DNA from: Bacteroidales bacterium
Lineage (GTDB): Bacteria; Bacteroidota; Bacteroidia; Bacteroidales; UBA3824
Length of the DNA: 64,000 bases
Assembly (NCBI GenBank): GCA_045597465.1
Contig: JAZLKG010000035.1
Coordinates: 51,740-115,739, forward strand
Direction of reading: 5' to 3'
The position numbers were made by a program, and so were the translations under genes. The notes under the pieces are model-generated. The model was not told where the DNA came from. It did not search any database and saw nothing but the letters and a program-made list of their open reading frames with translations. This document shows positions 1 through 52,180 of this stretch, one piece after another; position 1 is the stretch's first letter; the number at the start of each line of letters is the position of its first letter.

Positions 1-895
1 ACAAAGCCTGATATGCCAAAGAAACTGAATCGATATTATAATCATTATTGTTGTTGACATAAGTATTTATCAAAGTCAATTTCTTATCGAGGGAGGCGGT
101 CATATCGTTGCGGAAAGACTCAATGAGATTTAAATAAAACAAATCCATCTTACCACTTGATCGGTAAACGAATCTATCATCGAGTTGTCCTGATACAGAA
201 TTTGGTCTCAACTGATCAATTTTATTTTGAAGTAGTTGAATTTCAGCTTGTTTGTTATAGCGAGAATAAAAAGATTTAAGTAAATACAGATTCTTCAAAT
301 TGGAGTCATCTATACGAGAAAGTTTAGTAAACTCTACTTCTGCATTTTTTAAGTCCCTGATACTCTCATAATCGCATGCAAGTGCGAATCCAAGTTCTTC
401 ATTGTAACCAAAAACATCAATCATTTTCTTAAGAACCTCAATTTTCTTTTTAGAAAAATGAAGATCGTCGCAAATTGTATAAAATAATAAATAATCGTCG
501 TAACTTGGATTTTCTGGAATCGACTTTTCATAATACTGAATAGCCATATCAGAATTTCCTGATACTTCATATAACTTAGCAAGCAAAAACGAATAAGACT
601 TGTTGCCAGGACAAAGGGAATAAGCCTTCTGGGCAAAATGAATAGCAGCACCAAAATCATCTTGAAGATGATAGATGCGGGCAAGCTGAAAACATGCAGC
701 GGAAGAATTGGGATTAATCTTTAAACATTTATTGAGGCAAGAAACAGCATGCTGATACTCACCTCTCAATATATGCACTCCGGATTGAGACAACAAATTA
801 CTAAACTCAACCTCTGGCGGAAGATTCTGGGCTACCGACGAGGAAGAGTTTAACGTGAAACAAAGTAAAAATAATATGACAATATTAAGTCTCAT
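1..895 (-). CDS. TPR-repeat secreted protein (N-terminus complete, C-terminal part runs off the window start)
   Basis: My own translation of the minus strand from ATG 895-893 stays open to position 1. It is absent from the ORF track because it is truncated. It has a signal-like N-terminus ([23 protein letters not shown]) followed by TPR-like repeats ([50 protein letters not shown]). The start overlaps the dut stop as ATGA. Confidence 0.6.
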
Positions 896-1323
896 ACACC
901 TGTATGTCCAAATCCTCCATCTGAACGAACAGTGTCAGACAAAGATTCAACTACTTGTAAATCAGCTTTTTCATATTTGGCTATAACCATCTGACAAATC
1001 CTATCACCTGAATGTACGGTGAAAACCTGATCTGAGAGATTCACGAGTATAACCTTAATCTCACCACGATAGTCAGCATCGATGGTGCCAGGAGAATTTA
1101 GAACTGTGATTCCAGACTTGATAGCAAGACCTGAGCGAGGACGAATCTGGGCCTCGTATTGTTCTGGCAATTCTATAAAAAGTCCTGTCGGAATCAAAAC
1201 TCTCTCCAAGGGTTTGATCTCGACATCAGAATCCAAATTTGCACATAAATCCATACCGGCCGAATATTCTGTTGAATATTTGGGCAATGGATTTTTGCTT
1301 TTATTTATAATGTTGACTATCAT
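892..1323 (-). CDS. dut: dUTP diphosphatase
   Basis: 143 aa with classic dUTPase motifs: [22 protein letters not shown] and the C-terminal SDGGFGHTG. Confidence 0.95.
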
Positions 1324-1386
1324 AATATTACCAAAAATTTAAGTAATTAATATGCAAATTATCACACATACAAAATTAAAGAAAAA

Positions 1387-2892
1387 TCATCGCTTTAGCA
1401 ATTTATTAATCAATTTTTTTGTTGGTTCAGCAAGTTTTTCAACTTTGAAGACAATCAACGCAAAACTTATGATTATCAATGTATTAATAGCAAGTTTAGG
1501 CATAAGGGACAAAGCATCGGCAAACTGCATGCATATATAGCAAACAGCAGCCAAAACCGTGAAGAGGATAATCCCCTTGAAATCATATTCACAAGGCAAA
1601 TACTTACGGCCCCATACAAATGTTATCAACAACATTACAGCATAACAGATAACATTGGCCCAGGCACATGTAATATAGCCAAAGATTGGGACAAAGATAA
1701 CATCTACTGCAATAGTAATGACACTGCCAATCAGGAATATGTAAATACCGTAAACTGTCTTGTTAGATAGCTTATACCAAAATGACTGAAGATAAACCAA
1801 ACCTACAAGAAGATGACCTATCAACAAAAGAGGCACAATATCCAAAGCCTCCCAATAACTTTCTGATATAAAATGTTTTACAATATCGATATAACCCATA
1901 ATTCCCAGGAAGATAAACAAACCAAAAATCAAAAGGTATTTGTTGATCTGGGCAAACATGGGATTAAAACCGGGAGTCCCTTTCTGAGAGAAGAAGAATG
2001 GATCGGCCGCATATCTGAAACATTGTATAAATAATGTCATAAGAACAGCTATTTTTGTATTTGCACCGTAGATACCTAAAACACTGCGGATGTACGAAGT
2101 AGAATCAGTTATCTCAACAGGAACTTTATAGAATTGCTCTATGGCTATTCTATCAAAAAACTCGTTGATCATTCCGGCCAATCCTGAAATTATCAATGGC
2201 AAAGAATATAAAAGCATACGTTTGAGAAGGCTGAAATCGAATGAGAATTTTAGCCTGATATATTCAGGAATAAAGAACAAGAGATTGATGAAAGACGCAA
2301 CCAAATTTGCTATGAATACATAACCTACACCAATCTCAGGATTGTAAATAGAGGCAAAAATCTCTGAATTTTCAGCCAATTTGGGAAGCCAGAGAATGAA
2401 AAACAAGTTGAGACCTATCTGAACGAAGATATTTATCAACTTGAAGATTGCAAACTTCATGGCCTTGTTTTGCTGACGGAGACGTGCAAATGGTATGGAG
2501 GTAAAAGCATCAAGACCAAGTATCAGCACGATATAAATCACATAATCGGAATGCCCGGCAAAATCGAGTGCATCAGCAATCTGAGAAGACAGGAAAACTC
2601 CTGCCAAAATAAACAACGAACTTGTGGTAAACAAGGAAGTTGAAGCTGTTGAGAAAACCTTGTCGGGATCTTTTTCAGTCTTGCTGAAATTGAAGAAACC
2701 AGTCTCCATACCATACGTGAGTAGAATCATGAGAAACGACACGTATGTATACATTACTACTACCACTCCATACTCCTCGGTTGCGAAGCAACGGGTGTAG
2801 AGCGGTACAAGAAAATAATTCAGTATACGGCCAACAATGGAACTGATACCATACACAACAGTTTGATTAGCAAGCTGTTTAAGTTTTCCCAT
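1387..2892 (-). CDS. Polysaccharide biosynthesis / oligosaccharide flippase family protein (MOP/Wzx-like)
   Basis: 501 aa and hydrophobic throughout, with roughly 12-14 TM segments. The N-terminus QTVVYGISSIVGRILNYFLVPLYTR is typical of MOP-superfamily polysaccharide exporters. Confidence 0.7.
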   Translation of the reverse strand: MGKLKQLANQTVVYGISSIVGRILNYFLVPLYTRCFATEEYGVVVVMYTYVSFLMILLTYGMETGFFNFSKTEKDPDKVFSTASTSLFTTSSLFILAGVFLSSQIADALDFAGHSDYVIYIVLILGLDAFTSIPFARLRQQNKAMKFAIFKLINIFVQIGLNLFFILWLPKLAENSEIFASIYNPEIGVGYVFIANLVASFINLLFFIPEYIRLKFSFDFSLLKRMLLYSLPLIISGLAGMINEFFDRIAIEQFYKVPVEITDSTSYIRSVLGIYGANTKIAVLMTLFIQCFRYAADPFFFSQKGTPGFNPMFAQINKYLLIFGLFIFLGIMGYIDIVKHFISESYWEALDIVPLLLIGHLLVGLVYLQSFWYKLSNKTVYGIYIFLIGSVITIAVDVIFVPIFGYITCAWANVICYAVMLLITFVWGRKYLPCEYDFKGIILFTVLAAVCYICMQFADALSLMPKLAINTLIIISFALIVFKVEKLAEPTKKLINKLLKR

Positions 2893-2966
2893 AAGTTTGA
2901 TGTTTAAAAAATTAAATACAAATGTACAAAACTAAAATCAAATAATGAAAAACACTTTAGATATCT

Positions 2967-4100
2967 CTAAACGAAAAACTCAGAAATGATATAGTCCGAA
3001 ATGTAAAAACCATCAAGGTTAAGGTTTACATAATCGCCATTAAATTCAAAATAATCAATTAAATCTCTACGGGAGAGATTTTTCTCAAAAGAAGGAAAAT
3101 AACTATGAAAATTTGTTTTTAAATAGGGAATATGCACACCCAAAGAAGTACGGAACCTCAGCATGATATACTCATTGTACAAATCGTCGGAAGAAAGCTG
3201 TTCTACTTCATCAAATGGCTGATGCTTATTGATTTGATCATGATATTGACTGATACCGCGTACATTCCATCCACGCTTACTGTCAAAATAGGAATGAGCC
3301 GATGGTCCAAATCCCAGGTATGGAACATTGTTCCAATAATTGGAGTTGTGACGTGAATGCATACCAGTTTTGCAATAGTTAGATATCTCATAGTGCTGAT
3401 ATCCAAGACTTTGCAACAAATGATGAATCTGCTGGAATTGAGAAAGGAAAAATTCATCATCCATCTTCCGGATCTTTCCATGACGGAGTTTCAGCATGAA
3501 AGGCGTATTATCCTCTATACCAAGGCTGTAGGCAGAAATATGAGGAACACCACGGGAGGCAAGAATGCGAAAACTTCTATCAATCTCGGACTCGGTAAGT
3601 ATCTCATAACCAAAGATATAATCAACAGAAAAATTTGAAAAAGCATACTTCTCGCATAGATCAAGATAACGGTAATTATCCAATACCGAATGATTGCGGC
3701 CAAGATATGCAAGTCCAGCATCATCCATAGCTTGAAAACCAGTGCTGAGGCGGTTGATAAAGCCGGAGGACCGCATATCAGCAAAATAAGAATCTGTAGC
3801 GTGCTCAGGGTTTATCTCTATTGTGCATTCAATATCAACAGCAAGATTGTATGAACGCGATATAGACTCGAATATCCGGCTAAGTGCTGATACCGGCAGA
3901 ATGGATGGAGTGCCACCGCCGAAATATACAGTCTCAATAGTCTGATTATTAAAAAGATAAGATTTTTCTTCCAATTCAGTGGTAATACTGTTTAGGAAAT
4001 TATCTATAAAAGCGTTATCTTTGCGAAACCTAACAGAGAAGAAGTCGCAATATCCGCATTTTTTCTCGCAAAAAGGTATATGAATATACAAACCGGCCAT
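2967..4100 (-). CDS. hemW: Radical SAM family heme chaperone / oxygen-independent coproporphyrinogen III oxidase-like protein
   Basis: The radical SAM CxxxCxxC motif (CEKKCGYCDF) follows directly after MAGLYIHIPFC, and the length and architecture match HemN/HemW. I trimmed the ORF-track start (4193) to ATG 4100-4098. Confidence 0.85.
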   Translation of the reverse strand: MAGLYIHIPFCEKKCGYCDFFSVRFRKDNAFIDNFLNSITTELEEKSYLFNNQTIETVYFGGGTPSILPVSALSRIFESISRSYNLAVDIECTIEINPEHATDSYFADMRSSGFINRLSTGFQAMDDAGLAYLGRNHSVLDNYRYLDLCEKYAFSNFSVDYIFGYEILTESEIDRSFRILASRGVPHISAYSLGIEDNTPFMLKLRHGKIRKMDDEFFLSQFQQIHHLLQSLGYQHYEISNYCKTGMHSRHNSNYWNNVPYLGFGPSAHSYFDSKRGWNVRGISQYHDQINKHQPFDEVEQLSSDDLYNEYIMLRFRTSLGVHIPYLKTNFHSYFPSFEKNLSRRDLIDYFEFNGDYVNLNLDGFYISDYIISEFFV

Positions 4101-4452
4101 GATGGAAAAAATTAAGCGTTTCAAATTCAGCATATTATGGTCAATAATAATGCTGATAGGCTGCACGGCAAAACTCGGCGACGAACTACCCAAAGAGCCA
4201 ATGATACCATATCAGGACAAGATTGTCCACTTTGCGATATTTGGAATCATGGGTTTCATAATGATCGCCGAAAAGAGGAAAACTGACTGTAATACTCTGA
4301 TAATATGCACATTATATGGCATACTGATAGAGATAATACAATCATTCCTGCCTTGGCGCAGCTTCGAGATCCTCGACATGGTGTTCGACTCATTGGGCGC
4401 TGTGGCAGGAATTATTGCAGCCAAGTATCTGCTTAAAAACAGAATTAACTGA
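4099..4452 (+). CDS. VanZ-like family membrane protein
   Basis: 117 aa with 3-4 TM helices and a DKIVHFAIFG motif of the VanZ-like type. Its ATG (4099-4101) overlaps the divergent hemW start codon; an alternative ATG lies at 4102. Confidence 0.6.
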   Translation: MMEKIKRFKFSILWSIIMLIGCTAKLGDELPKEPMIPYQDKIVHFAIFGIMGFIMIAEKRKTDCNTLIICTLYGILIEIIQSFLPWRSFEILDMVFDSLGAVAGIIAAKYLLKNRIN

Positions 4453-4459
4453 TAGAGAA

Positions 4460-4900
4460 TTACTTAACAGGCATTTTCTCTATACGGCGCTGATGACGGC
4501 CACCCTCGAACTCAGTATTGAGGAAAGCCTCAAGAATCTTGATGGCCTCGTCCTGAGAGATAAAGCGGGCAGGCATCGAAAGCACGTTGGCATTGTTGTG
4601 AGAACGGGCAAGACGCGAAATCTCCTCGTTCCAGCACAATGCTGCACGGATACCCTGATGCTTGTTGGCAGTCATGGAAATACCATTGCCAGAACCGCAG
4701 ATTGTAATGCCGTAAAAGTCGGGATCCTTCTCAACCTCGATGGCGAGTGGATGGGCATAATCGGCATAATCGCAGCTCTCTGAAGAGTTGGTGCCAAGAT
4801 CGGTAACATCGAAACCCTTCTTTACGAGGTAATCCTTCACGAAGAGTTTCAGCTCGTAGCCTGCGTGGTCGGAGGCCATAAACAATTTGGTGATTTTCAT
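4460..4900 (-). CDS. rpiB: Ribose-5-phosphate isomerase B
   Basis: 146 aa with RpiB/LacAB signatures ASDHAGYELK and CGSGNGISMTANK. Confidence 0.9.
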   Translation of the reverse strand: MKITKLFMASDHAGYELKLFVKDYLVKKGFDVTDLGTNSSESCDYADYAHPLAIEVEKDPDFYGITICGSGNGISMTANKHQGIRAALCWNEEISRLARSHNNANVLSMPARFISQDEAIKILEAFLNTEFEGGRHQRRIEKMPVK

Positions 4901-4939
4901 AATGTTGTAGTATATTTGTTGATAAAAAACTTTGCAAAT

Positions 4940-5457
4940 ACAGCATTGTGGATAACGAGGAAAACACCAGAAAACTCAAACTGTTGAAAATTAGAGTATT
5001 AGCGTAATTAACAAAGTGTAATCTACACTATCCATTATGTTAGTATTCAGTGAATTACAAAGGTTATAAACAAGGTTTGTTTATAACGCTGTTGAAAACT
5101 GTTGATAAAAGATATGGCAATGTTGATAATTTGGAAAACCCAAAAGATTATCCACAAAAGTCAAAAATTATACACAACATTTCAACAAGTTTTCCACAGA
5201 AAATCAAAATTCACACAAAAGCATGTTATTAACATGCAAAAGCATGAGCATTGACTGTTGATATGTTGATAACTTTCACAAACAACAGAGTATCAGCAAA
5301 TTGATATTCACATACATTGTTGAGAAAAGCATCAGCACTGTGGAAAACCCGATAGCAAAATTAAAGCAAAAAAAGTTATCCACAATATCAACAGGCAATA
5401 AAAATAATCATAAGATAAAAAAATAAAAAAAATTATAATTATAAAAATCCGGAAAAC
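4940..5457. other. Candidate chromosomal replication origin (DnaA-box cluster plus AT-rich tract)
   Basis: Perfect TTATCCACA boxes lie at 4947-4955(-), 5148-5156(+) and 5376-5384(+). One-mismatch boxes lie at 5100-5108, 5121-5129 and 5264-5272 (TTATCAACA, -), 5168-5176 (TTATACACA, +), 5190-5198 (+) and 5339-5347 (-) (both TTTTCCACA). A nearly pure A/T run follows at 5395-5450. Confidence 0.55.
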
Positions 5458-5458
5458 G

Positions 5459-6445
5459 ATGGAAAAGACTTTGAAACCCACCCTCAAGAACGGCCACATA
5501 GACATGCCGGTTCCAGAGGGAACCGACCTGAAGGCCGAGATTGCAAGAATGAAGAAAGAGAAAAACGCCGTGATACTGGCGCACTATTATACAACTGCCG
5601 AGGTGCAGGAGATAGCGGACTATACCGGCGACAGCCTTGGCCTCAGCCAGCAGGCAGCCAAGACCGATGCTGATATCATCCTGTTTGCAGGTGTGCATTT
5701 CATGGCTGAAACTGCCAAGATACTGTCTCCCAACAAGAAGGTGATAATTCCAGACCTGGCTACAAGCTGCTCGCTGGCAGACAGCGTTACCGAGCGCGCC
5801 CTGGCCGAATGCAAAAAGAAGTATCCGGACCATACCGTGATATCCTACGTAAACACCACTGCCGAGGTAAAAGCCCTCACCGACATTGTGGTAACCTCCA
5901 GCAACGCAATAAAGATAGTTAGCCAACTGCCTGAGGACGAGAAGATTATATTCGGTCCTGATAAAAACCTGGGCAATTATGTGAAAAAGGTTACCGGCCG
6001 CAGCAATATGGTTATCTGGGATGGCGGATGCCATGTACATGACCATTTCGACGCTGATGCCCTGCGCAGACTGAAGGCCGAGCATCCTAACGCCAAGGTG
6101 CTGGCCCATCCAGAGTGCAACGAGAGCATACTTGACCAGGCCGATGTGATAGGCGCTACATCCACATTGCTGAAGGCTACCTGTGATATGCCTGATACTG
6201 AGTTTATTGTGGCTACCGAACCTGGCATATTCTATGAGATGATGAAGCGCAATCCCGGCAAGACATACATTCCTGTGCCCAACGAGAATGGCCATCCATA
6301 CAATGTTTGTCAGAATATGAAGCGCAACAATCTTGTAAAGATCTACAACACACTTAAATACGAGTTTCCAGAGGTGGATGTGCCCGAGGCCCTCAGCTCC
6401 AAGGCCGTAAACTGCATCACCCGCATGATGGATATGAGCAAGTAA
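5459..6445 (+). CDS. nadA: Quinolinate synthase A
   Basis: 328 aa with NadA hallmarks (ILAHYYT, GVHFMAETAKIL, three-fold repeat architecture). Confidence 0.95.
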   Translation: MEKTLKPTLKNGHIDMPVPEGTDLKAEIARMKKEKNAVILAHYYTTAEVQEIADYTGDSLGLSQQAAKTDADIILFAGVHFMAETAKILSPNKKVIIPDLATSCSLADSVTERALAECKKKYPDHTVISYVNTTAEVKALTDIVVTSSNAIKIVSQLPEDEKIIFGPDKNLGNYVKKVTGRSNMVIWDGGCHVHDHFDADALRRLKAEHPNAKVLAHPECNESILDQADVIGATSTLLKATCDMPDTEFIVATEPGIFYEMMKRNPGKTYIPVPNENGHPYNVCQNMKRNNLVKIYNTLKYEFPEVDVPEALSSKAVNCITRMMDMSK

Positions 6446-6476
6446 TCAATCGTTTAATTATCAATTATACAGTAGT

Positions 6477-8024
6477 ATGAAGAAGGCATTTTTGGTGATG
6501 GTGGCCCTGATGCTTGCGGTAAGCGCGGGCATGGCTCAAAACCAGATAGTGGCCAATGGCTACAACAAGTTTCTGTATCCCGACGGCAGCGTATCCAGCG
6601 AAGGCACCCTGCGCGACGGCAAGCCAGACGGATTCTGGAAGACATATTATCCAAATGGAAAGCTGAAGTCGGCAGGCAAACGCACTAATTTCCTGCTTGA
6701 CAGCACTTGGATTTTCCTGGACGAGAGCGGCGATACTACCAGCCTTGTCAACTACATGTTTGGTAAGAAAAACGGATATTGCTTTGTGTATGAGACATAT
6801 ATCGACAGCATCAGCCACAATGTTATAAAAGCCAAGGAACTCTACCGCGAAGACAAGCGTCAGGGATATGCCTTCTATTACAAAAAAGGCCGTTTGGACA
6901 GCGAAATTCCCTTCAAGGACGATAGAAAACATGGCGAAGGGTATCAGTACGACAAAGATGGCACTATCGTCGCAATTCTGACCTATAAATACAACGATCT
7001 CGTGGACCGTACCATTATCAACAGAATTGACGAAAACGGGCTAAAACAGGGCGTTTTCCGCACTTTCTACCCCGATAAGAAGGTAAGGACCGAATGCTAT
7101 TACAAGGACGGCAAGCTAAACGGATATTTCCGCGAGTTCGACAACCGTGGAAAGGAAGTATCAGCCCTGAGATACATAGACGGCAATCTCCAAAACGAGA
7201 GCAAGAACCAGCTCGCCGCCGACAACTCCGCAGCCAAGGTCAAGATAGAATATAATGATAACGGAACCATCAAGAAATCAGGTGCTTACAAAGACAACAA
7301 GCCTGTGGGAGTACACCGTACATACAATGCCGACGGCAAGATAAACGGCGGACAGCTCTTCGACGACAACGGAGTAAAGGTGGCAGACGGAGTAACCGAC
7401 GGCCGTGGCCGCGAGCAGGGCAAGTGGACCATATACGACAGCACAGGAGCTGTGAGGGCCAAGGGGCAATACAAGAACGGCAAGCGCGAGGGACAGTGGT
7501 ATTTCTATTTTCCCGACGGCAAGACCGAGCAGGAGGGTGTCTACAAGGATGGTAAACCTGACGGCAAATGGATGTGGTATTTTGCCGATGGCAAAACACG
7601 CAGGGCCGAATCTTTCGTGAACGGCAAGGAGGACGGCCTCTACTATGAGCTTAGCAACGCAGGCGATACATTGAATGTGGGCGAGTACATCGAGGGCGAC
7701 AAGGACGGCACATGGAAATACATTACCGGCGATGCCCTGGTGGTGGAAAACTGGAAAGACGGCATTCAGCATGGCGACTACATTGTCTACAATCTGCCCG
7801 GAATGTCGGTCCGCACTGTCTCCAAATACCTGAATGGCAATCTGCACGGCAAGTTTGTGGAATATTATGACAATGGCAAGGTATATAGGGAAGGCACCTA
7901 CATGGGTGGCAACCAAAACGGCGTCTGGAAAATATATACCGAGGAGGGACTGGAAGAAACCACTCTGGAATACACTCAGGGCGAGATTTCCAAGGTGGAT
8001 GGCAAGGAAATGCCAAGGAAATAG
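6477..8024 (+). CDS. Secreted MORN-variant repeat protein (YwqK-type repeats)
   Basis: 515 aa with a signal peptide (MKKAFLVMVALMLAVSAGMAQ) and many tandem repeats of about 23 aa of the form G.W..YY.NGK....G.Y..GK..G.W. Confidence 0.7.
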   Translation: MKKAFLVMVALMLAVSAGMAQNQIVANGYNKFLYPDGSVSSEGTLRDGKPDGFWKTYYPNGKLKSAGKRTNFLLDSTWIFLDESGDTTSLVNYMFGKKNGYCFVYETYIDSISHNVIKAKELYREDKRQGYAFYYKKGRLDSEIPFKDDRKHGEGYQYDKDGTIVAILTYKYNDLVDRTIINRIDENGLKQGVFRTFYPDKKVRTECYYKDGKLNGYFREFDNRGKEVSALRYIDGNLQNESKNQLAADNSAAKVKIEYNDNGTIKKSGAYKDNKPVGVHRTYNADGKINGGQLFDDNGVKVADGVTDGRGREQGKWTIYDSTGAVRAKGQYKNGKREGQWYFYFPDGKTEQEGVYKDGKPDGKWMWYFADGKTRRAESFVNGKEDGLYYELSNAGDTLNVGEYIEGDKDGTWKYITGDALVVENWKDGIQHGDYIVYNLPGMSVRTVSKYLNGNLHGKFVEYYDNGKVYREGTYMGGNQNGVWKIYTEEGLEETTLEYTQGEISKVDGKEMPRK

Positions 8025-8462: not shown

Positions 8463-9482
8463 CTATTGGAAATATTCGTCGACAAATGAAGCGAAATTCG
8501 TCAAACTCTCTTTGCTGATTCCGTATATGTAGTAGCTGATGTCGGGATAGCTCTTTATGAGTGTGTAATACAGAAACTCGTCCAGAAGGTCGTTTTGCAG
8601 CAGCGAGCAAAAGAAATCGAGGTAGAAGTCGGAATGTGTCCATTCGTCTCTGTTTTCATTGCACGTAGCCGATTCGCATATCTTAATGATGAGGTTTCTC
8701 GAGTTTTCTATAAAGCATTCCGCGTTATCCAGCAGATTCTCTGTATCAGCCTCACACTTTTGGGTATCGCTCAGGAAAGCCATTGCCCAGTAAAGCTGAA
8801 TGTCGGTATCGCTTGCAGTGGAATCGTTGTTGTAGATCACATCCTGCATAGCGTCGCGAACGTTGCGGTTTTGCGATATCAGTTGCTGTATCTTCCTTAC
8901 ACTCTGTTGGTTTGGCGATATCATCAGCTGAAAATAGTCAGACATAAGGCATTGGATGAAATGCCGTTGCTGAAGCTCGTACTGCGATATCAGGAAATGC
9001 GCCGCCCTGTTGAACGGGCCGCACTTTATGGTTTTGCAAAACTGTTTTCCTGTCATCACGCTGTTTCCCGGCATCTCGCTGTAAAGCATTGCAAGATATA
9101 GATTTATGTTGTAGTCGTTGGGAAATCTGGAAAGCAGACTGTTGTACAGGCTCTCCTCCTCCTCTACCCTGCCCTCCTGATGCAGCACAGTACCTTTCAC
9201 TATTGCCGCCTCGCGCGAGTAGTCACCCTTCATGTCCAGGCATTCCGACGAATATTTGCTGGCTTGTCTGTAGTTGCCAATTGCCAGATAGTTTTTGGCA
9301 AGGTTTAGGCATACAAGCTCCTTCATGTCGTTGGTGGAATACAGGTCGATGAGTTGTTTGTTGCTTTTCCCATATTCTTTTTCGGCCTGATACTGGAGCG
9401 CAATCTTTAGTTTTTCCTCCGCTGTCTGACTTTTGGCCTCCATAGAGAAAAAAATGACTAATAATAAAATAAATGCTCTCAT
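8463..9482 (-). CDS. Secreted TPR-like hypothetical protein
   Basis: 339 aa with a signal peptide (MRAFILLLVIFFSMEAKSQ) and TPR-like segments (LNLAKNYLAIGNYRQASKYSSECL). Its start overlaps the upstream HAD gene stop as ATGA. Confidence 0.6.
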   Translation of the reverse strand: MRAFILLLVIFFSMEAKSQTAEEKLKIALQYQAEKEYGKSNKQLIDLYSTNDMKELVCLNLAKNYLAIGNYRQASKYSSECLDMKGDYSREAAIVKGTVLHQEGRVEEEESLYNSLLSRFPNDYNINLYLAMLYSEMPGNSVMTGKQFCKTIKCGPFNRAAHFLISQYELQQRHFIQCLMSDYFQLMISPNQQSVRKIQQLISQNRNVRDAMQDVIYNNDSTASDTDIQLYWAMAFLSDTQKCEADTENLLDNAECFIENSRNLIIKICESATCNENRDEWTHSDFYLDFFCSLLQNDLLDEFLYYTLIKSYPDISYYIYGISKESLTNFASFVDEYFQ

Positions 9483-10090
9483 TTCAAGAATTTGTCTAAT
9501 GTTTCGTAAAGGTCCTCCTGATGCTCCAGTCTTATTGTTTGCAGGCCGGCTTGTCGGGCTCCTTCTATGTTGTCCATCCTGTCGTCAATGAAGACTGTCT
9601 CGCTTGGGCTGATTCCCGCGTCGGCTATCACCCATTGGAAACATTCCAGGTCGGGTTTTCTATAGTGTATCTCGTTGGAATAGTATATCTTGTCGAAAAG
9701 TCCCTTTCTCCACATGGCCATTGGCTCCAGGTATTCCACGTGTATCTGGTTGGTGTTGCTCAATACGAATAGTTTGTATCCATCATTTTTCAGCTTTTCC
9801 AGGAATGGATTGTTGTCCCCGGGGTATGATATTATCATCGCATTCCAGCATTCGTCGAAAGTCCTGCTGTCGATATCGAGTCCAAACATTGAGTTGAATC
9901 CATTTCGGAAGTCCTGTGGAGAGATTTTTCCAGTTTCGAAAAGCATGAACAATTCGCTTTCTACAAGTCTTATGTAACTTTGGTTAACATTCTGTAAACC
10001 ATTGTTTTGGAATCTATTCTTTGTTTCATCGTTATTAATTGGAAACAAAACACCGCCCAAGTCGAAAATTATATTTTTAATTTTTTTCAT
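9479..10090 (-). CDS. HAD-superfamily hydrolase (subfamily IA)
   Basis: HAD motif I (IIFDLGGVL), motif II (LSNT) and motif III/IV (FIDDRMDN). I trimmed the ORF-track start to ATG 10090-10088. Confidence 0.85.
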   Translation of the reverse strand: MKKIKNIIFDLGGVLFPINNDETKNRFQNNGLQNVNQSYIRLVESELFMLFETGKISPQDFRNGFNSMFGLDIDSRTFDECWNAMIISYPGDNNPFLEKLKNDGYKLFVLSNTNQIHVEYLEPMAMWRKGLFDKIYYSNEIHYRKPDLECFQWVIADAGISPSETVFIDDRMDNIEGARQAGLQTIRLEHQEDLYETLDKFLK

Positions 10091-10245: not shown

Positions 10246-10279
10246 ATAGCTGCAAATCATATTTGCAGCTATTTTTTTA
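10246..10279 (+). terminator. Rho-independent terminator after the tRNA
   Basis: A 12-bp stem (ATAGCTGCAAAT / ATTTGCAGCTAT) with loop CAT, followed by T7. The T-run overlaps the dnaG stop codon. Confidence 0.7.
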
Positions 10280-12274
10280 TATTATGATAATCCTCTTAAG
10301 GTTTTGCGACAGAGCTTTCTCTACGTCTTTCAGTTGACGCACTCGCTCCATGATCTCCTTCAAATCCTCTGGCTTGCTGCTCTTTAGCTGTTCCAGAGTT
10401 TCCTTTGTGGCCAGCCTTATCACTTTTAGTTTGTAGCTGTTGATGGTTTTGGGTATATCGTTCCTGAAAGTGTCTTCGGGCATGTTGCATTTGGTTCCAC
10501 GCTTTTCCCAGAGAGCGCTCAGTGTGTCGCGTGGAATTGTAACCTCGCAAGCCAGTTCCCTGATCTGCTCGTCGGGATGATTCAGGAAATAGTTTGTGTC
10601 TATGGCCTCGCCGCTTTCCAGATGCGCTATGTACTCGTCGAATACTTTCTTGTATTTCAGGTTTTTGAGTTCCATATTCTCGTTCAGCAGCTCCGCGATT
10701 ATGTAAGTAGCCACGTTGATGGAGTTTACCTGTCCGGTAGCGGCATCAGTATAGCTCTCGAACTCCAGGTTACCGTAGTTTATCAGATAGCTGGCAATTT
10801 CTTTTTCCTCGATATCGGCGCTTATGCCGGTCACAAATGACGGCACAGCCACGCTCCCCTCTCCCATCAGCTCTGGAGGCATCATCATTTCGTCGGTAGG
10901 CTCTGCCGGAGTTGTGGCCTCGCCTGCCTGCACAATGCCCTGGCGGAACTTCTGTTTCATCTCCTCCTCGTGGTTTTTCTTGAGGGTTCGTCCGGTTTCC
11001 TGATACAGCGCATCTTCTTTTACATCGAGCAGCCTGCTGCACTCCTTTATGTAAACCGATCTTGTTACAGCATTCGAAATCTTTGATATAGAGTTAATTA
11101 TGCTGTTGATAACCTCGGCTTTCCTGAGGGGATCTTCGGCATCTTTCAGTAGGATTCTGGTCTTGAATTTTATGAAATCCTCCTCGTGTGCATCAATGTA
11201 TTCCTGAAGCTCTTGCGGAGTGTGGCTTCTCGCAAACGAGTCGGGGTCTTCGGGTTCCGGCAATAGCACCACTTTTACGTTTATGTCCTGCTCCAGTATC
11301 AGGTCGATACCTCTCAGCGAGGCCTTTATTCCAGCCCAGTCACCGTCGTATATTACAGTTAGATTGCTTGTAAAGCGCTTTATTACAGATATTTGACCCG
11401 GAGTCAGCGATGTTCCCGAGCTGGCCACGGTGTTGGTGACGCCCGACTGATGCATGCTTATCACATCGCAGTATCCCTCGCACAGGTAGCACTTGTCGCG
11501 CCTTACAATTTCATTTTTGGCCTGATATATACCATACAGGACATTGCTCTTGTGGTAAACTTCAGATTCAGGCGAGTTTACATACTTGGCCATCTTCTTG
11601 TCGTTCTGCATGATACGGCCGCCAAAGGCCACCACCTTGCCGGCAATGGAGTGTATTGGGAAAATCACCCGTCCACAAAAACGGTCGAACTTGTATCCAT
11701 CTTCTTTTACGATAGATAATCCCGTCTTTTCCAGGAACTTAAGTTTGTATCCCTTGCTAAGTGCTTCATTAGTAAGGGCCTGGCGGTTTTGTGGAGAATA
11801 TCCGAGCTGAAACTTCTTTATGGTTTCGTCGGTAAAGCCTCTGTGCTGAAAATATGTGAGAGCTATGGCCCGTCCTTCTTCGCTGTCAGTGAGCTGTTTG
11901 GAGAAGAATTCCGCTGCGAATTGGTTTACAATTCCCATACTCTCCCTCTCTTCGTGCTCTTCCTTCTCCTGCTCCGTAAACTCTTTTTCCTTTATGTGTA
12001 TGCCGTATTTCTTGGCCAGATATTTAAGAGCCTCGGGATAAGTCATGTTTTCGTGACGCATTACAAACGACACAGGGCTGCCGGCCGCTCCGCATCCAAA
12101 GCATTTGAAAATGTTTTTGGCGGGCGATACCGACATCGACGGCGTTTTCTCGTTGTGGAACGGACAACAGCCGATGTAGTTGGTTCCACGGCGTTTCAGC
12201 GTCATAAAATCCTGCACAACATCCAGGATTTGGGCCGTCTCAAGTATTTTCTGTACAGTTTGATTGTCTATCAT
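10277..12274 (-). CDS. dnaG: DNA primase
   Basis: 665 aa with a CHC2 zinc finger (CPFHNEKTPSMSV...CFGCG) and TOPRIM motifs (EGYCDVIS, DGDWAG). Confidence 0.95.
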   Translation of the reverse strand: MIDNQTVQKILETAQILDVVQDFMTLKRRGTNYIGCCPFHNEKTPSMSVSPAKNIFKCFGCGAAGSPVSFVMRHENMTYPEALKYLAKKYGIHIKEKEFTEQEKEEHEERESMGIVNQFAAEFFSKQLTDSEEGRAIALTYFQHRGFTDETIKKFQLGYSPQNRQALTNEALSKGYKLKFLEKTGLSIVKEDGYKFDRFCGRVIFPIHSIAGKVVAFGGRIMQNDKKMAKYVNSPESEVYHKSNVLYGIYQAKNEIVRRDKCYLCEGYCDVISMHQSGVTNTVASSGTSLTPGQISVIKRFTSNLTVIYDGDWAGIKASLRGIDLILEQDINVKVVLLPEPEDPDSFARSHTPQELQEYIDAHEEDFIKFKTRILLKDAEDPLRKAEVINSIINSISKISNAVTRSVYIKECSRLLDVKEDALYQETGRTLKKNHEEEMKQKFRQGIVQAGEATTPAEPTDEMMMPPELMGEGSVAVPSFVTGISADIEEKEIASYLINYGNLEFESYTDAATGQVNSINVATYIIAELLNENMELKNLKYKKVFDEYIAHLESGEAIDTNYFLNHPDEQIRELACEVTIPRDTLSALWEKRGTKCNMPEDTFRNDIPKTINSYKLKVIRLATKETLEQLKSSKPEDLKEIMERVRQLKDVEKALSQNLKRIIII

Positions 12275-30158: not shown

Positions 30159-31487
30159 ATGTATAAAAGGAAGATTGAGGAAATTCTGAAGAAGTGGAAG
30201 GCAAATAGCAACAGGTTTCCGCTGGTGATAAAAGGATGTCGCCAGTGCGGAAAAACATTCTCTGTTGTAAACTTTGCACGCAGTAATTACAAGAATGTTG
30301 TCTATATGGATTTCTTCAACAATCCAGAGTACAAGGAGATTTTCAATGGATCTTTGGATGTTGACAGGATTTGTCTCCGTATATCATCGCTTGTGCCTGG
30401 GGTCAGGATTGTGGCAAACGAGACCTGTTTCGTCTTTGACGAGATTCAGGATTGCCCAAAGGCCAGGATGTCGCTGAAATTCTTCAAGATTGACGGCCGT
30501 TATGATGTCATCTGCACGGGTTCGCTCCTTGGTGTGAATGGCTACAGGTCTTCCAATATGAATAAAGACGACGAGAACACACCTTTGCCTGTTGGTTACG
30601 AGACCATCATAGATATGTATCCGATGGATTTTGAGGAATGGCTCTGGGCCAACGGTATCAGTAAGCCTACTCTCGATTACCTGAGAGATTGTTTCGATAG
30701 TAAAGAGCCTGTGGATGAGGCTATTCACAATCGTATGCGTCAACTGATGCTTCAATATGTGATAGTGGGAGGCATGCCGCGCGCCGTAAATGCCTTTTTC
30801 GAGACCAACAATTATCAGGAAGTTCAGATAGTGCAGCGGGGCATTGTGGATGAGTACAAGAGCGATATGATAAAATATGCGCCATCTCAGGACAAGCCTC
30901 GCATACGTGAGTGTTTCGAGTCGATACCCAAGCAGCTGAGCCGGGAGAACAAGAAATTCTCTTATTCAGTGGTACGTGCAGGCGGACGTGGGCGCGATTA
31001 CGTTGGCAGTCTTCAGTGGATAGAGGATGCCGGCATCATACGCCGCTGTTACAATCTGGAAATCACCGAATTGCCTTTGGACGGCAATGCCATTTACGAT
31101 CAGTTTAAGGTATATATGGCCGATACCGGTTTGTTTGTGAGCATGCTGGAGGAAGGCACGGCCTGGGCCATCGAGCAGGGAAACCTATTGAGCTACAAGG
31201 GAGCTATTTTCGAGAACCTTGTGGCTGATATCCTTGGCAAGGCGGGGCGCAAGCTGTATTATTTCCGCAAGGATTCAGGATTGGAGGTTGATTTTGTGAT
31301 AAGATACTGCGACAAATGCACCTTGCTGGAATGCAAGGCATCGTCGGGCAATATCAAATCCGCCAAAACCATCCTCCAGCATCCCGAGAAATACCATGTT
31401 TACGACGCCATGAAATTAGGAGATTACAATATCGGCCATACCGGTCAGTTTGTTACATTGCCGATATATATGGCCTTTATGCTGTAG
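30159..31487 (+). CDS. AAA+ ATPase (AAA_14/DUF4143-type) with a C-terminal PD-(D/E)xK-like motif
   Basis: 442 aa with Walker A (GCRQCGKT), Walker B (CFVFDEIQ) and a C-terminal GLEVDFVI...LLECKAS (D..ExK pattern). Confidence 0.8.
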   Translation: MYKRKIEEILKKWKANSNRFPLVIKGCRQCGKTFSVVNFARSNYKNVVYMDFFNNPEYKEIFNGSLDVDRICLRISSLVPGVRIVANETCFVFDEIQDCPKARMSLKFFKIDGRYDVICTGSLLGVNGYRSSNMNKDDENTPLPVGYETIIDMYPMDFEEWLWANGISKPTLDYLRDCFDSKEPVDEAIHNRMRQLMLQYVIVGGMPRAVNAFFETNNYQEVQIVQRGIVDEYKSDMIKYAPSQDKPRIRECFESIPKQLSRENKKFSYSVVRAGGRGRDYVGSLQWIEDAGIIRRCYNLEITELPLDGNAIYDQFKVYMADTGLFVSMLEEGTAWAIEQGNLLSYKGAIFENLVADILGKAGRKLYYFRKDSGLEVDFVIRYCDKCTLLECKASSGNIKSAKTILQHPEKYHVYDAMKLGDYNIGHTGQFVTLPIYMAFML

Positions 31488-34501: not shown

Positions 34502-37500
34502 ATGACAACACGCATTTGCCCATATCCAGGCCTGAGGCCTTTTACTGAGGAAGAGTCGGTCTTCTTCAAGGGCCGCGATATGCACATACGTCAGATAGTT
34601 AAGCTATTGGAAAACAACAAGATGGCTTTTATCACCGGTGCGTCTGGCGATGGCAAGTCATCCATGGTGTATGCCGGTGTGGTTCCGTATATTAGGGCCG
34701 GTTACTTCAAGTCAAGGTACAATGGCTGGCTGATAGCCGACTTCAAGCCTCAGAAAAACCCGCTGATGTCGCTGTCGGAATCGCTGGCAGGGCAGCTTGG
34801 CATGGATGTAAGCAAGTGCTGCGGCGAGCTTGGCTACGGCTTCTCCTCGCTGGTGGACCTCTACAAGGAGTCGCCATGCTATGTTACCGACGGCCCCGAC
34901 CAGAGCAACCGTGGCAAAAACCTGCTCATCATAGCCGACCAGTTCGAGGAGGTGTTCACCAATTTCGAGAATTTCGACCAGGGGCATCCCTCCGATGCCT
35001 GCTACACTGCCGTAAACCTGCTGCTGGAGACCATCAGGATATCCATCGTGGAGGACCTGCCCGTGTATGTGATATTCACAATGCGCAGCGACTTCATATC
35101 GCAGTGCACATTCTTCAAGAATCTGCCGGAATACATAGCCTACTCGCAGTTTTTTGTGCCGCAGCTGAAGCGCACCGAAATCCGCCAGGTGATAGAGGAG
35201 CCCGCGCTGATGGCCGGCGGCAAGATATCGCCACGCCTCATAGAGGTGATAATCAACAACATGGGGTCCGGTTTCGACCAGCTGCCTGTGCTTCAGCATG
35301 CCCTGAACCTTCTGTGGCGCATGGCCGACAACGGCGGCGTGGAGATGGACCTGATACATCTGGCCAAGATAGCAGGCATCAGCAGCGAAATGCTCTCGCC
35401 CGACGACAGGGGTGAGTTTGAGCGCTGGTTCCGCAACCTGCCGGAATACCACCACAAGTATTACGAGAGGCCCGACCTCAACAATGTGCTGAATGCCCAC
35501 GCGGGAATACTCTACGAGAGCGCCTACGACTATTTCATGCAGAACAGCGACTGGGCCGAGAAATCCATAACCCCCGACGAGAGCAAGGAGATTATAGAGA
35601 CCGTATTCAAGAGCCTCACCAAGATAGACAACAACCGCCCCGTGCGCAACAGGTGCACCCTGAGCGAGATTACGGGCATCATCAACAAGCCCAACATCAC
35701 CAACGCCACGGTGTGTGGAGTAATCAACATTTTCCGCACGCCGGAAAACTCGCTCATAAAGCCGTTCTCCGTGCCGGGACGCACCGACACGCAGTACATC
35801 TCCGGCGACACCGTGCTCGATGTAACCCACGAGGCCCTCATCCGTAACTGGAAACTGCTGGCCGAATGGGACATAGAGGAGGTCACCGATATGAAAGACT
35901 ATCACGACCTGAACGCCCAGATGCAGCTGTGGATCAACAACGACAGAAACGCGTCCTATCTGCTCAACAGCGGAAGCTACACATACTTCAACCAGTGGTT
36001 CAACCGCAGCAACCCAAATCCATCGCTGTTCCTGAAATACGACAGCAGCATGCTGCCCGTGCGCCAGAAGATAAAGAACGCCCAGAGCAAGTACGAGAAC
36101 TATGTGGATTTCCTGGAAACCTCGTATCAGGCCATACTTGCAAAGGAGCGTCAGGTGAAACGCCGCATCCGCATACTCATATACGGACTCCTGGCCTTTG
36201 TGATTTCCCTATCGGCCTTCACATACTGGGCCATGAAGGAGAAGGACAACGCCGAAAACCAGCAGCGCATTGCCGAGGAGCAGAAACTGGAGGCCAACCG
36301 GCAGCGCGAGGAGGCCGACCGGCAGAAACAGGCGGCCCTGGATGCCAACGTGATAGCACAGCAGGAGCGCGATACCGCCCGCATAATGGCCGGAAGGGCG
36401 CTCGAGGCCCAGCGCAGGAGCGAGAGGGCCAGCTACCTGGCCATCAAGAACTATCAGGAGGCGCTCAACCAGCAGCGCATAGCCGAGGAGCAGCGCATGA
36501 TTGCCGATTCGCAGCGCACCATTGCCGAAAACGACCGCTTGCAGCTGAGGCATCAGATGAGGCTTACCGACTCGGCAAACGCACAGAGCGCAAAATACAA
36601 CAGGATGGCCATGAGCAACCTCCTGGCCATGAAGGCAAAGGGACAGTACGACGACAAGCTGCTTAACCTGAGGCTTGCGCTTACCGCATACAACTTCAAG
36701 AAAGACAATGCTGTAGACAAGATGCCAGAAATTTACGATGCCGCCCTTTTCGCACTGGGCCAAAACAAGATGCTCGATGTGATAAAGCCGGGCAGCGGCA
36801 AGCTGATGTCATTCGCCATAGGCGACGACAACGAGATTGTGTGCATCAACCAGAACGCACAGGTATACACCTACGCCCTCCAGGAGAACAACAAGCTGAA
36901 GGAGAAATCCAAGATCACCAAATATGTGACCAAGCTGCCCATACGCAACGCCGTGTTTGTGGACGCGCTCAATGTGATATATTCCACCGCCGACCACAAC
37001 TCCTATCTCCTGAACGTGAAATCCAATGTGAGGCTGAAGCTCAGCTCCCAGGGCGACCTGGTGCAGAGCGCCCACACAACCCTGGACGCCAAGTACATGG
37101 TGATAGCGTATCAGTCGGGTAGGGTGGTGGTATTGAACGCCAAGGAGCCCGACGACAGGATAGTGCAGTCCATCAACCTGAAATCCAGGCTTGTGGGCAT
37201 GTGCTGCTCGCCAAACTCCACCGATGCCTACATCCTCACCCAGAAGGGCGAGTTCATAAAATGGAGTTTCGTGGAAAACCGTCAGAAGACCATTTTCGTG
37301 GAAAAGGAGCACACTCCATCGTGCATAGTGTCCATACCGGACCGCAGGCAGCTGGCCATCTGTTTTGCCGACGGCACCATACAGTTTGTGGACACCAAGA
37401 CCGACACCCTGGAGGAAGTGATACTGGGCAGCCATTCGGGACTGGCCGACGCCGTATACGACACCAACACAGGACTGCTGATGGTCTCTGGCGTGGGAAA

Positions 37501-37759
37501 GCTTATCTCCATCATAGACGTAAGGAAACTCTACGACAAGCCGTTGCTCATAGAGGAGCATGCGCTCAACCGCAGCGACATCGTCTGCATGGAGTTTACC
37601 GAAACAGGGGATGGCATACTGGCCCTTACCGCCGACAACACTCTCAGGTATTTCTCGCTGGACCTCAATACATACATACAGCGCATAGAGCAGAAGTATC
37701 TGAAACCACTTAACGAAGACGAGCAGCAGCTGATACTGGGCCGCGACATGTACAATTAA
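34502..37759 (+). CDS. Transmembrane novel-STAND NTPase with coiled coil and seven-blade beta-propeller-like C-terminus
   Basis: 1085 aa with the N-terminal signature CPYPGLRPFTEEESVFFKGR, Walker A (GASGDGKSS), a Walker B-like LLIIADQFEE, one TM helix (RRIRILIYGLLAFVISLSAFTYWAM, nt about 36173-36235), a Q/R/E-rich coiled coil with NQQRIAEEQ twice, and seven blade-like repeats of about 45 aa (nt about 36800-37700). Confidence 0.75.
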   Translation: MTTRICPYPGLRPFTEEESVFFKGRDMHIRQIVKLLENNKMAFITGASGDGKSSMVYAGVVPYIRAGYFKSRYNGWLIADFKPQKNPLMSLSESLAGQLGMDVSKCCGELGYGFSSLVDLYKESPCYVTDGPDQSNRGKNLLIIADQFEEVFTNFENFDQGHPSDACYTAVNLLLETIRISIVEDLPVYVIFTMRSDFISQCTFFKNLPEYIAYSQFFVPQLKRTEIRQVIEEPALMAGGKISPRLIEVIINNMGSGFDQLPVLQHALNLLWRMADNGGVEMDLIHLAKIAGISSEMLSPDDRGEFERWFRNLPEYHHKYYERPDLNNVLNAHAGILYESAYDYFMQNSDWAEKSITPDESKEIIETVFKSLTKIDNNRPVRNRCTLSEITGIINKPNITNATVCGVINIFRTPENSLIKPFSVPGRTDTQYISGDTVLDVTHEALIRNWKLLAEWDIEEVTDMKDYHDLNAQMQLWINNDRNASYLLNSGSYTYFNQWFNRSNPNPSLFLKYDSSMLPVRQKIKNAQSKYENYVDFLETSYQAILAKERQVKRRIRILIYGLLAFVISLSAFTYWAMKEKDNAENQQRIAEEQKLEANRQREEADRQKQAALDANVIAQQERDTARIMAGRALEAQRRSERASYLAIKNYQEALNQQRIAEEQRMIADSQRTIAENDRLQLRHQMRLTDSANAQSAKYNRMAMSNLLAMKAKGQYDDKLLNLRLALTAYNFKKDNAVDKMPEIYDAALFALGQNKMLDVIKPGSGKLMSFAIGDDNEIVCINQNAQVYTYALQENNKLKEKSKITKYVTKLPIRNAVFVDALNVIYSTADHNSYLLNVKSNVRLKLSSQGDLVQSAHTTLDAKYMVIAYQSGRVVVLNAKEPDDRIVQSINLKSRLVGMCCSPNSTDAYILTQKGEFIKWSFVENRQKTIFVEKEHTPSCIVSIPDRRQLAICFADGTIQFVDTKTDTLEEVILGSHSGLADAVYDTNTGLLMVSGVGKLISIIDVRKLYDKPLLIEEHALNRSDIVCMEFTETGDGILALTADNTLRYFSLDLNTYIQRIEQKYLKPLNEDEQQLILGRDMYN

Positions 37760-37776
37760 TACCAACAACAGAAGCC

Positions 37777-38940
37777 ATGCTTACATACATATTAATATCA
37801 GTGATAGCTATACTTGCCGTATCGGTGGTATACCTCCTTGTGGCGCGCAACCGCATCGTGAGGCGCGCCACCGACCGCGTGCACAGCCGCTACGAGAAAG
37901 AGATAGCCGACCAGGGCTACGAGATCAAGCGGTTGAACTACCTCTATCAGGAGCTCAAGGAAACCGCAAGATATGGCAGCCAGGTGCAGGACGGCAAGTT
38001 TCAGGATAGTGACATAAAGGGTGCCGAGGACCTGATACTGGCACAGAAACGCCTGGCCGCAGAGAAAGAGGACATGGCCCAGCGCAACCGCAAGCTGTGG
38101 GACATGTCGATACAGATACAGAAAGACCGCACACGCATACAGCTGCTGAAAAACGAGCTGGAGCTCAAGCACAAGAACGTGACCGACTCCATAGCCTACG
38201 CCAGGCGAATACAGGATGCCGTATTGCCGAGGGTGGATATCCTCTCTGATGCTTTCGCCGACCATTTCCTCTTCTGGAGGCCCAAGGAGACTGTCTCGGG
38301 CGATTTTTACTGGATGAAACGCGATGGCGACATGGTGGCATTCTGCGTGGCCGACTGCACTGGCCATGGAGTGCCTGGAGCGTTCATGAGCATGATGGGG
38401 GTAACATTCCTGAACGAGGTGTGCTCCCATGTGGGCGTTGACACCAAGCCTTCCGATGTGCTGGAGAAGCTTAGGCAGCTGGTGATAGACACCCTGAAGC
38501 AGGACAACTCGAATCCCATGGAGCCCAAGGACGGCATGGACCTGGCGTTCTGCATCCTGAACCTGAAGACCCGCGTGCTGAGATTCTCGGGCGCCAACAA
38601 TCCCCTCTATCTGGTGCGCGACGCGCAGATTACGGAATACAAGGCCGTGAAATGCCCAATAGGACTATATCCCAAGATAAAGCCATTCGAGACCGTGGAG
38701 CTGCAGACACAGCCGGGCGACTATCTCTATATGTTTTCGGATGGATTTGCCGATCAGTTCAATGGAGCTACCGGCAAGAAGGTTACCTACGGACGCTTCC
38801 GCAACCTGCTCTGCGATATCAACCGCGAGACCTGCGTGGCCTGTGAGCAGCAGCAGCGCCTCGACAAGTTTCTGCTCGACTGGCGTGCCGATTTCATCCA
38901 GATGGACGATGTGCTGATAGGCGGCTTCAGGGTGAAATAG
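37777..38940 (+). CDS. Membrane-anchored PP2C/SpoIIE-family protein phosphatase
   Basis: 387 aa with an N-terminal TM helix (LTYILISVIAILAVSVVYLLVA) followed by RNRIVRR, a coiled coil, then PP2C/SpoIIE motifs (SIAYARRIQDAVLP, SGDFYW, DCTGHGVPGAFMSM, FSDGFADQ). Confidence 0.85.
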   Translation: MLTYILISVIAILAVSVVYLLVARNRIVRRATDRVHSRYEKEIADQGYEIKRLNYLYQELKETARYGSQVQDGKFQDSDIKGAEDLILAQKRLAAEKEDMAQRNRKLWDMSIQIQKDRTRIQLLKNELELKHKNVTDSIAYARRIQDAVLPRVDILSDAFADHFLFWRPKETVSGDFYWMKRDGDMVAFCVADCTGHGVPGAFMSMMGVTFLNEVCSHVGVDTKPSDVLEKLRQLVIDTLKQDNSNPMEPKDGMDLAFCILNLKTRVLRFSGANNPLYLVRDAQITEYKAVKCPIGLYPKIKPFETVELQTQPGDYLYMFSDGFADQFNGATGKKVTYGRFRNLLCDINRETCVACEQQQRLDKFLLDWRADFIQMDDVLIGGFRVK

Positions 38941-39016
38941 GGCCTGAAACCAAAAAAAATTGCGGCGATAATGAAAAAAATATCAAAATCATAAAAAAAA
39001 TACAAAAAAAATAACT

Positions 39017-39024
39017 TATCTTTG
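39017..39024 (+). promoter_or_regulatory. -7 promoter box TATCTTTG for efp
   Basis: Perfect TAnnTTTG, 43 nt upstream of ATG 39067. Confidence 0.5.
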
Positions 39025-39066
39025 TCGCTTGAACAATTATAAACATTATAAAATACATTAAGATTA

Positions 39067-39645: not shown

Positions 39646-39704
39646 CATGCCTTATTGATGGGCGGCCCCAAGGGGTTTCCCTCACAAAAAATTCTCAGAT
39701 ATTC

Positions 39705-39727
39705 TTGCCGGATATATTGTCCGGCAA
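39705..39727 (+). terminator. Possible efp terminator hairpin
   Basis: TTGCCGGA-TATATTG-TCCGGCAA. T-runs begin only about 10 nt downstream, so this is weak. Confidence 0.35.
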
Positions 39728-39782
39728 CAGTATCTGGTTTTTGTTTTTATTTTTTTTCTAATTTTTTTAATATCCTGATGCC

Positions 39783-48936: not shown

Positions 48937-49000
48937 TCCAAAAATGAAAAGAATTTTTAAGAATGAAAAGAATTATTTTATAACTTTGAAAGTTGTTCTT

Positions 49001-49024
49001 AAAAGACACGAAGTGTCTTTTTTT
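49001..49024 (+). terminator. Second terminator-like hairpin
   Basis: AAAAGACAC-GAA-GTGTCTTTT followed by further T residues. It lies immediately before the left inverted repeat of the GxxExxY cassette. Confidence 0.5.
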
Positions 49025-49030
49025 GATTGA

Positions 49031-49562: not shown

Positions 49563-49609
49563 AAAAAAAAAGTGGGCGAAGCCCACTAAACCTTGATTTT
49601 GTGTAGAAT

Positions 49610-52173: not shown

Positions 52174-52180
52174 AAAATCA

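Follow-up and report, generated by a model that had tools for sequence, protein, structure and literature searches.

The 558-bp spacer between rpiB and nadA, at positions 4901-5458 of the 64-kb stretch of DNA analysed here (the window), is very probably the chromosomal oriC of an uncultured rumen or gut Bacteroidales bacterium. This reading is based on an excess of DnaA boxes, purifying selection specific to these boxes, the instability of an adjoining AT tract, the order of the elements and a positional match to predicted origins. By analogy, we infer that DnaA would bind, DNA would unwind and the origin would fire within 4901-5458. A preliminary description of the same DNA had proposed a candidate oriC at this place, and the proposal is supported by the box-specific conservation, the unwinding-type layout, the position shared with DoriC origins and the divergence of the flanking genes.

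The spacer has a GC content of 28%, and the genes diverge from it; towards rpiB, eight of the nine genes further out are oriented away from it. The naming of rpiB, nadA and dnaG as neighbours in the preliminary description is borne out by their coordinates and by NCBIfam matches, and its remark that dnaA is absent from the window agrees with a Pfam scan in which none of the 10 window ORFs of 387-536 aa matched DnaA. In regard to close relatives, an identical RpiB is encoded on four contigs (L081-L084, two from NCBI MAGs and two from Logan assemblies), which share the rpiB/spacer/nadA arrangement and are about 86% identical to the window at the DNA level. An exact-protein look-up gave no identical record for NadA or for a 501-aa protein. 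A yak-omasum Bacteroidales MAG (L001), with a NadA 78% identical, carries the same spacer upstream of nadA and, on its left side, an ORF with the size and orientation of rpiB (putative rpiB). The features of the window are given below, together with the state of the boxes in these relatives.

4460-4900, minus strand: rpiB, left flank of the spacer, transcribed away from it (NCBIfam ribose-5-phosphate isomerase B, E = 1.7e-53)
4917-4925, minus strand: DnaA box TTATCAACA, one mismatch; not conserved in L081
4947-4955, minus strand: DnaA box TTATCCACA, perfect; identical in L081-L083, TGTTGATAA in L001
5100-5108, minus strand: DnaA box TTATCAACA, one mismatch; conserved in L081, aligned with TGTGGATAG in L001
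5121-5129, minus strand: DnaA box TTATCAACA, one mismatch; 21 nt from the 5100 box, aligned with a perfect TGTGGATAA in L001
5148-5156, plus strand: DnaA box TTATCCACA, perfect; conserved in L081-L083, not in L001
5168-5176, plus strand: DnaA box TTATACACA, one mismatch; aligned with TAATCCACA in L001
5190-5198, plus strand: DnaA box TTTTCCACA, one mismatch; identical in L081-L083
5264-5272, minus strand: DnaA box TTATCAACA, one mismatch; adjoins a two-mismatch box at 5256-5264
5339-5347, minus strand: DnaA box TTTTCCACA, one mismatch; identical in L081-L083
5376-5384, plus strand: DnaA box TTATCCACA, perfect; upstream box of the tandem pair facing the AT tract, aligned with GTTTCCACA in L001
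5385-5393, plus strand: DnaA box ATATCAACA, two mismatches; abuts the 5376-5384 box, aligned with CTATTCACA in L001
5394-5396: GGC patch between the box pair and the AT tract; gcc, ccc or GGC in relatives
5397-5448: AT tract, candidate DNA unwinding element; 52 nt, 96% A+T (37 A, 13 T)
5398-5412, minus strand: putative degenerate DnaA-trio stretch; top strand ATA AAA ATA ATC ATA, bottom strand 3'-TAT TTT TAT TAG TAT-5'
5459-6445, plus strand: nadA, right flank of the spacer, transcribed away from it (NCBIfam quinolinate synthase NadA, E = 1.9e-128)
10277-12274, minus strand: dnaG, annotated in the window
37777-38940 and 39783-41024: SpoIIE-type phosphatase genes, next after a 1085-aa ORF

In the spacer, 10 boxes deviate from the consensus by one mismatch at most; three are perfect TTATCCACA copies and seven have a single mismatch. 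With up to two mismatches the number rises to 21, on both strands and spread across 480 bp. In 5000 dinucleotide-preserving shuffles of 4901-5458 itself (28% GC), which served as the null model, the corresponding values were 0.24 +/- 0.48 (maximum 4) for up to one mismatch, 0.007 for perfect copies and 2.9 when two mismatches are allowed. Elsewhere in the window no 558-nt stretch contains more than three boxes, and there is no second cluster. The three perfect boxes all lie where the preliminary description had placed them, but its six one-mismatch boxes have to be raised to seven, the additional one (4917-4925) being located just left of its start coordinate. The variant it had seen repeated at 5100, 5121 and 5264 is TTATCAACA at all three places and recurs at 4917. 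Two-mismatch copies reported at 4982 and 5090 were found again, while the one reported at 5257 in fact occupies 5256-5264. Its estimate of about 0.1 boxes per 500 bp under uniform base composition is arithmetically right, and the enrichment it deduced is upheld by the shuffles. Part of the array is regularly organized: the three plus-strand boxes at 5148, 5168 and 5190 follow each other at 20 and 22 nt, and together with the minus-strand boxes at 5100 and 5121 they build two opposed blocks with boxes 20-22 nt apart, or about two helical turns.

Comparison with relatives separates the boxes from the sequence between them. Box positions are 94% identical between the window and L081, whereas other spacer positions are 74% identical (Fisher p = 8e-6), and the AT tract, with 93% identity, differs from these other positions in the same way. 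Likewise, against L001 the box positions retain 79% identity and the other spacer positions 47% (p = 3e-7). At several places where the window has TTATCAACA, relatives show the canonical TTATCCACA, and the 5264 box reads TGTGGATA or AGTGGATAA there, nearer to the consensus. A 15-nt block at the 5190 box, AACAAGTTTTCCACA, is identical in L001, and in L081-L083 the flank of this box has a single base change (AACACG). Among the relatives with 86% identity there is hardly any variation in the final ~120 nt, which extend from the TGTGGAAAA box at 5339 and include the pair, GGC and the AT tract. Boxes and AT tract are thus under strong purifying selection, while the intervening spacer drifts. In the middle of the spacer, at 5221-5237, there is also a palindrome with a 7-bp stem, GCATGTTAATAACATGC, and after it a minus-strand T run; this segment is not kept in the 86% relatives.

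The right end of the array is composed, in order, of TTATCCACA, ATATCAACA, GGC and the AT tract, which starts 3 nt after the same-orientation box pair. No other 50-mer in the 64 kb is richer in A+T, and none is thermodynamically less stable. The CAGGC patch of the preliminary description is present at 5392-5396. The almost pure A/T tract following it, which had been given as about 55 nt at 5395-5450, is delimited here to the 52 nt of 5397-5448, and the 6-nt period of TAA applies to three copies only (5399, 5405, 5411), the rest being located at 5416, 5424, 5436 and 5442. Such an arrangement agrees in order and orientation with the BUS of Bacillus subtilis oriC (DnaA-box#6/#7 plus DnaA-trios; Richardson 2016; PMC8287927), in which a stronger upstream box is followed by a weaker tandem box, a GC-rich spacer and an AT-rich region. 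In the window, the boxes are a TTATCCACA without mismatches and a weaker tandem ATATCAACA with two, both on the plus strand, and both ways of scoring put position 5376 first among the BUS-like sites of the window. One of the two is an ad hoc score that serves for ranking within the window only and that in many other loci picked opposite-strand boxes of the same origin region. If trios begin at 5398, the box-to-trio spacer (5385-5397) measures 13 nt, where the BUS definition allows up to 16 bp, and this length, counted from the first box up to the first candidate trio, is also the commonest one reported for BUS spacers (PMC8287927).

The putative trios themselves are less regular than those of B. 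subtilis. Four of the five triplets of 5398-5412 fit the pattern and the run is interrupted (ATA AAA ATA ATC ATA). A strict rule of at least three consecutive trios, with a spacer of 1-6 nt after the box pair, did not fire at 5376, and three consecutive trios appear only from 5404, at 19 nt from the first box and 10 nt from the second. The rule was relaxed after this failure to at least three of four trios with a box spacing of 9+8 or 9+9, and in this form, with at least three of the first four trios fitting, the stretch passes. The putative DnaA-trio element is degenerate in the lineage of the window. A further difference from B. subtilis oriC is that the candidate is not located between dnaA and dnaN.

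Box density alone cannot distinguish DnaA-box clusters of the B. subtilis type from origins, and this counts in favour of a reading in which the spacer is a non-origin cluster that titrates or modulates DnaA, as datA and DARS do in Escherichia coli or as in B. subtilis, with the true origin elsewhere, e.g. beside dnaA. We regard this reading as improbable. Like the window's cluster, datA, DARS and the B. subtilis clusters are located away from dnaA, but none of them has an unwinding element beside it or initiates replication, whereas the least stable tract of the window abuts the box pair. No titration site is known in which a same-orientation box pair adjoins a GC patch together with the region's least stable tract, and this combination is found here. 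Furthermore, other Bacteroidota carry canonical TAATAGTAATAG trio repeats with BUS spacing at the same position. The completeness of the module, with boxes and unwinding element together, also counts against the possibility of a secondary, relic or bipartite-partner origin, in which a second DnaA-box region would be present elsewhere, as in split origins. With 64 kb of the genome in view there is room for such a region, but the strong purifying selection on boxes and AT tract speaks against a relic or a partial structure, and this scenario is given hardly any weight.

As for catalogued origins, BUS sequences derived from DoriC-predicted origins are listed in a supplement by Pelliciari et al. 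2021 (PMC8287927), and the DoriC origins used as reference are thus predictions themselves. The BUS of Chitinophaga pinensis DSM 2588 (ORI93020100) matches the module found upstream of nadA in the Chitinophaga loci L034 and L046 in 30 of 32 bases, and that of Pedobacter heparinus (ORI93030264) matches in 25 of 30 within the nadA-upstream spacer of another P. heparinus strain (L075). The listed BUS of P. heparinus DSM 2366 lies at ~9757 of L075 on the minus, i.e. opposite, strand, and a better-looking module facing nadA is present about 150 nt away, at ~9870-9900 on the plus strand, where TTATACACAGTATCCACAcgCTAATAAACAATAG precedes an AT tract. It is accordingly possible that the published automatic choice fell on a wrong site within the right origin. 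A 25-mer from the BUS of Prevotella ruminicola 23 (ORI93030288) was found in 40 rumen metagenome contigs, and in all 35 of those with at least 200 nt downstream, nadA follows on the same strand at ~60-95 nt. Upstream, these contigs hold 4.8 boxes per 680 bp, compared with 0.42/kb elsewhere. Since these BUS strings fall upstream of nadA, the element of the window is the positional counterpart of the DoriC oriC in three genera, among them that of a cultured rumen Prevotella, a coincidence that a titration cluster would have to account for. No meaningful match in the loci set was obtained with the BUS strings of P. denticola, P. intermedia 17, B. helcogenes, C. hutchinsonii, P. gingivalis and D. 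fermentans, but these species are absent from it and their strings therefore carry no inference. The one Bacteroidetes origin verified experimentally is that of Cytophaga hutchinsonii (PMC3531139); no link between it and nadA was found in the loci compared, which do not include this species.

One close counterpart, the P. ruminicola 23 oriC predicted in DoriC, also belongs to a rumen Bacteroidales with an excess of DnaA boxes upstream, and it shares with the window the tandem pair, the short GC patch and the AT-rich tract directly upstream of nadA, on the nadA strand. Differences exist as well: the window has more boxes (10 vs ~4.8 per 680 bp), its box spacing is 9+9 instead of 9+8, the top strand of its AT tract is A-rich where that of P. 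ruminicola is T-rich, and its trios are less regular. The left neighbour is rpiB in the window, while P. ruminicola-type loci gave no rpiB match. The nadA-linked origins of Chitinophagales and Sphingobacteriales (e.g. ORI93020100) occupy the same place upstream of nadA and have the same overall module, but they differ from the window in a near-invariant CTAATAGTAATAG trio block and a 9+8 box spacing, and the similarity between Chitinophagales and window sequences is below profile detection.

The preliminary description had implied that an origin without dnaA nearby would be odd. This proved unfounded, as the oriC of Bacteroidetes is commonly located far from dnaA, and in Prevotella a GC-skew transition is found at a box cluster away from dnaA (Prevotella intermedia genome paper, PMC4755523). 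Such transitions also weaken the titration reading.

The association with nadA was followed in 80 nadA loci (L001-L080) taken from species-representative genomes. In the 800 bp upstream of nadA, DnaA boxes have a density of 2.66/kb, compared with 0.37/kb elsewhere in these loci. A recurring module, typically located within locus positions 9300-10000, ends 10-70 nt before the nadA ATG. It begins with a box close to the consensus and a weaker tandem one (nATTCACA or ATTAACA), after which come a GC patch, repeats of the TAATAGTAATAG type and an AT-rich tract. On the complementary strand these repeats read 3'-GAT TAT CAT TAT-5', which is the DnaA-trio pattern with a central A and GAT as first trio, and the spacing agrees with the 10-13 nt described for BUS (PMC8287927). 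A 23-mer consensus, ATTAACACCCCTAATAGTAATAG, was found with up to 5 mismatches in 25 loci; in each of them it shares the strand of nadA and lies 70-215 nt upstream. A rule-based detector combining box pair, spacer, trios and AT tract recognized the module within 300 nt upstream of nadA in 32 of the 80 loci, compared with 0.5 expected from the background rate, and by eye the module is visible in more nadA loci than these strict rules return. An nhmmer profile built from 25 Chitinophagales-type modules strongly matched 27 loci but not the window, and L001 was reached only at E of about 8; being too lineage-specific, the profile is unfit as a homology test.

In the window, the nadA ATG is found 10 nt past the end of the AT tract (5448-5459), and the rpiB ATG 16 nt from a DnaA box, so both promoters must sit in the spacer. 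Across loci, the distance of the nadA start codon from the AT tract ranges from the 10 nt of the window to ~70 nt, with similar situations in L025, L051, L061, L069 and others. With the start codon so near, the nadA promoter would lie inside the origin, and transcription would cross the unwinding element or start in it. Alternatively, the spacer could be a DnaA-controlled divergent promoter region for nadA and/or rpiB and have nothing to do with replication, although the two roles could coexist. Besides the necessary presence of both promoters, this would fit the tight linkage to nadA conserved across the phylum and a certain enrichment of sigma-70-like matches in the spacer (7 vs 2.8 +/- 1.9 expected). 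However, to our knowledge, DnaA-regulated promoters carry far fewer boxes than the 21 found here over 480 bp on both strands. Boxes and module are also absent upstream of nadA in the loci of cyanobacteria, Rhodothermales and most Saprospiraceae, and for this reason boxes are not a general property of nadA promoters. The combination of trios, GC patch and box pair is, in addition, a feature of origins (PMC8287927), and a purely regulatory role is considered very unlikely. Other explanations of the spacer found no foothold: an Rfam scan of 4700-5700 gave no match at E up to 1, and a riboswitch or sRNA was consequently dropped, while the blastn search of PLSDB returned no match to the spacer and thus no sign of a plasmid origin.

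Nucleotide skew leaves the titration reading some support, as no GC-skew sign change was found at the spacer in the genome of the window, where the left arm is short and has few genes. Over the 59 kb of the right arm, strand balancing gives a GC skew of +0.024 for all positions and +0.035 for third codon positions, and such positive values fit the plus strand as the leading strand in the rightward direction. After correction for gene strand, the skew of the left arm is between ~0 and +0.03, in estimates covering only 5-15 kb (5 kb in the window, 10 kb in L081) with very few genes, all on one strand. Raw GC skew differs significantly between the left and right sides of nadA in 57 loci, a difference confounded by gene strand. 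Pooled over 43 module-bearing loci, the skew is -0.014 on the left and +0.035 on the right, with 23 of 30 in the expected direction, but controls without the module differ similarly, and because this left-right difference persists in control loci even when strand-balanced, the pooled skew is counted as weak. A separate pattern is seen in the AT skew of the top strand, which is +0.12 to +0.21 over positions 1-8000, across genes on both strands, and has reversed to -0.18 to -0.24 by 8-12 kb; this reversal has no simple fit to gene orientation and does not occur at the box cluster.

All three alternatives are less likely than a chromosomal oriC. Each of them would have to explain why an unwinding-type module is present and why it coincides with catalogued origins. 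In regard to the mechanism by which the proposed oriC could act, DnaA would occupy an array of about 10-21 boxes, and the tandem pair TTATCCACA-ATATCAACA (5376-5393) would position a DnaA-ATP oligomer. This oligomer could then spread over the GGC patch onto one strand of 5397-5448 and open it, after which the replicative helicase would be loaded.

Other parts of the window show their own peculiarities. A stretch of low GC content (35-43%) at ~49000-60200, about 45 kb from the candidate origin, harbours two AAA_14/DUF4143 ATPase genes (one more is present at 30159-31487), a Fic/DOC gene (50965-52146), an ATPase_2 gene (57020-58444) and a YhcG-type PDDEXK nuclease gene (58952-60115), and looks like an accessory or defence-type island. 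The region 34502-41024 has, in turn, a high GC content (54-55%) and comprises the 1085-aa ORF followed by the two SpoIIE-type phosphatase genes.

Since an oriC far from dnaA is the norm in the phylum, the origin proposed here is an ordinary addition to a known type. Its placement in an uncultured rumen Bacteroidales helps the estimation of growth rates from metagenome coverage, the orientation of assemblies and the construction of shuttle vectors. The phylum-wide linkage between nadA and the origin may be seen as a useful by-product that might merit a brief comparative account: a large part of the Bacteroidota have their origin marked by nadA, which is a modest practical gain without conceptual surprise. 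The Ori-Finder 2022 table of indicator genes contains neither nadA nor a Bacteroidetes entry, and in the literature on nadA or quinolinate synthase and oriC no paper was found tying nadA to a Bacteroidetes origin. It is conceivable, though rather doubtful, that the juxtaposition of origin and nadA is an ancestral and so far undescribed feature of the whole phylum, spanning Bacteroidales, Chitinophagales and Sphingobacteriales, with nadA transcribed from inside or across the origin. If true, nadA would become a practical origin indicator for thousands of draft Bacteroidota genomes, and transcription of a gene for NAD biosynthesis could possibly be mechanically coupled to the opening of the origin.
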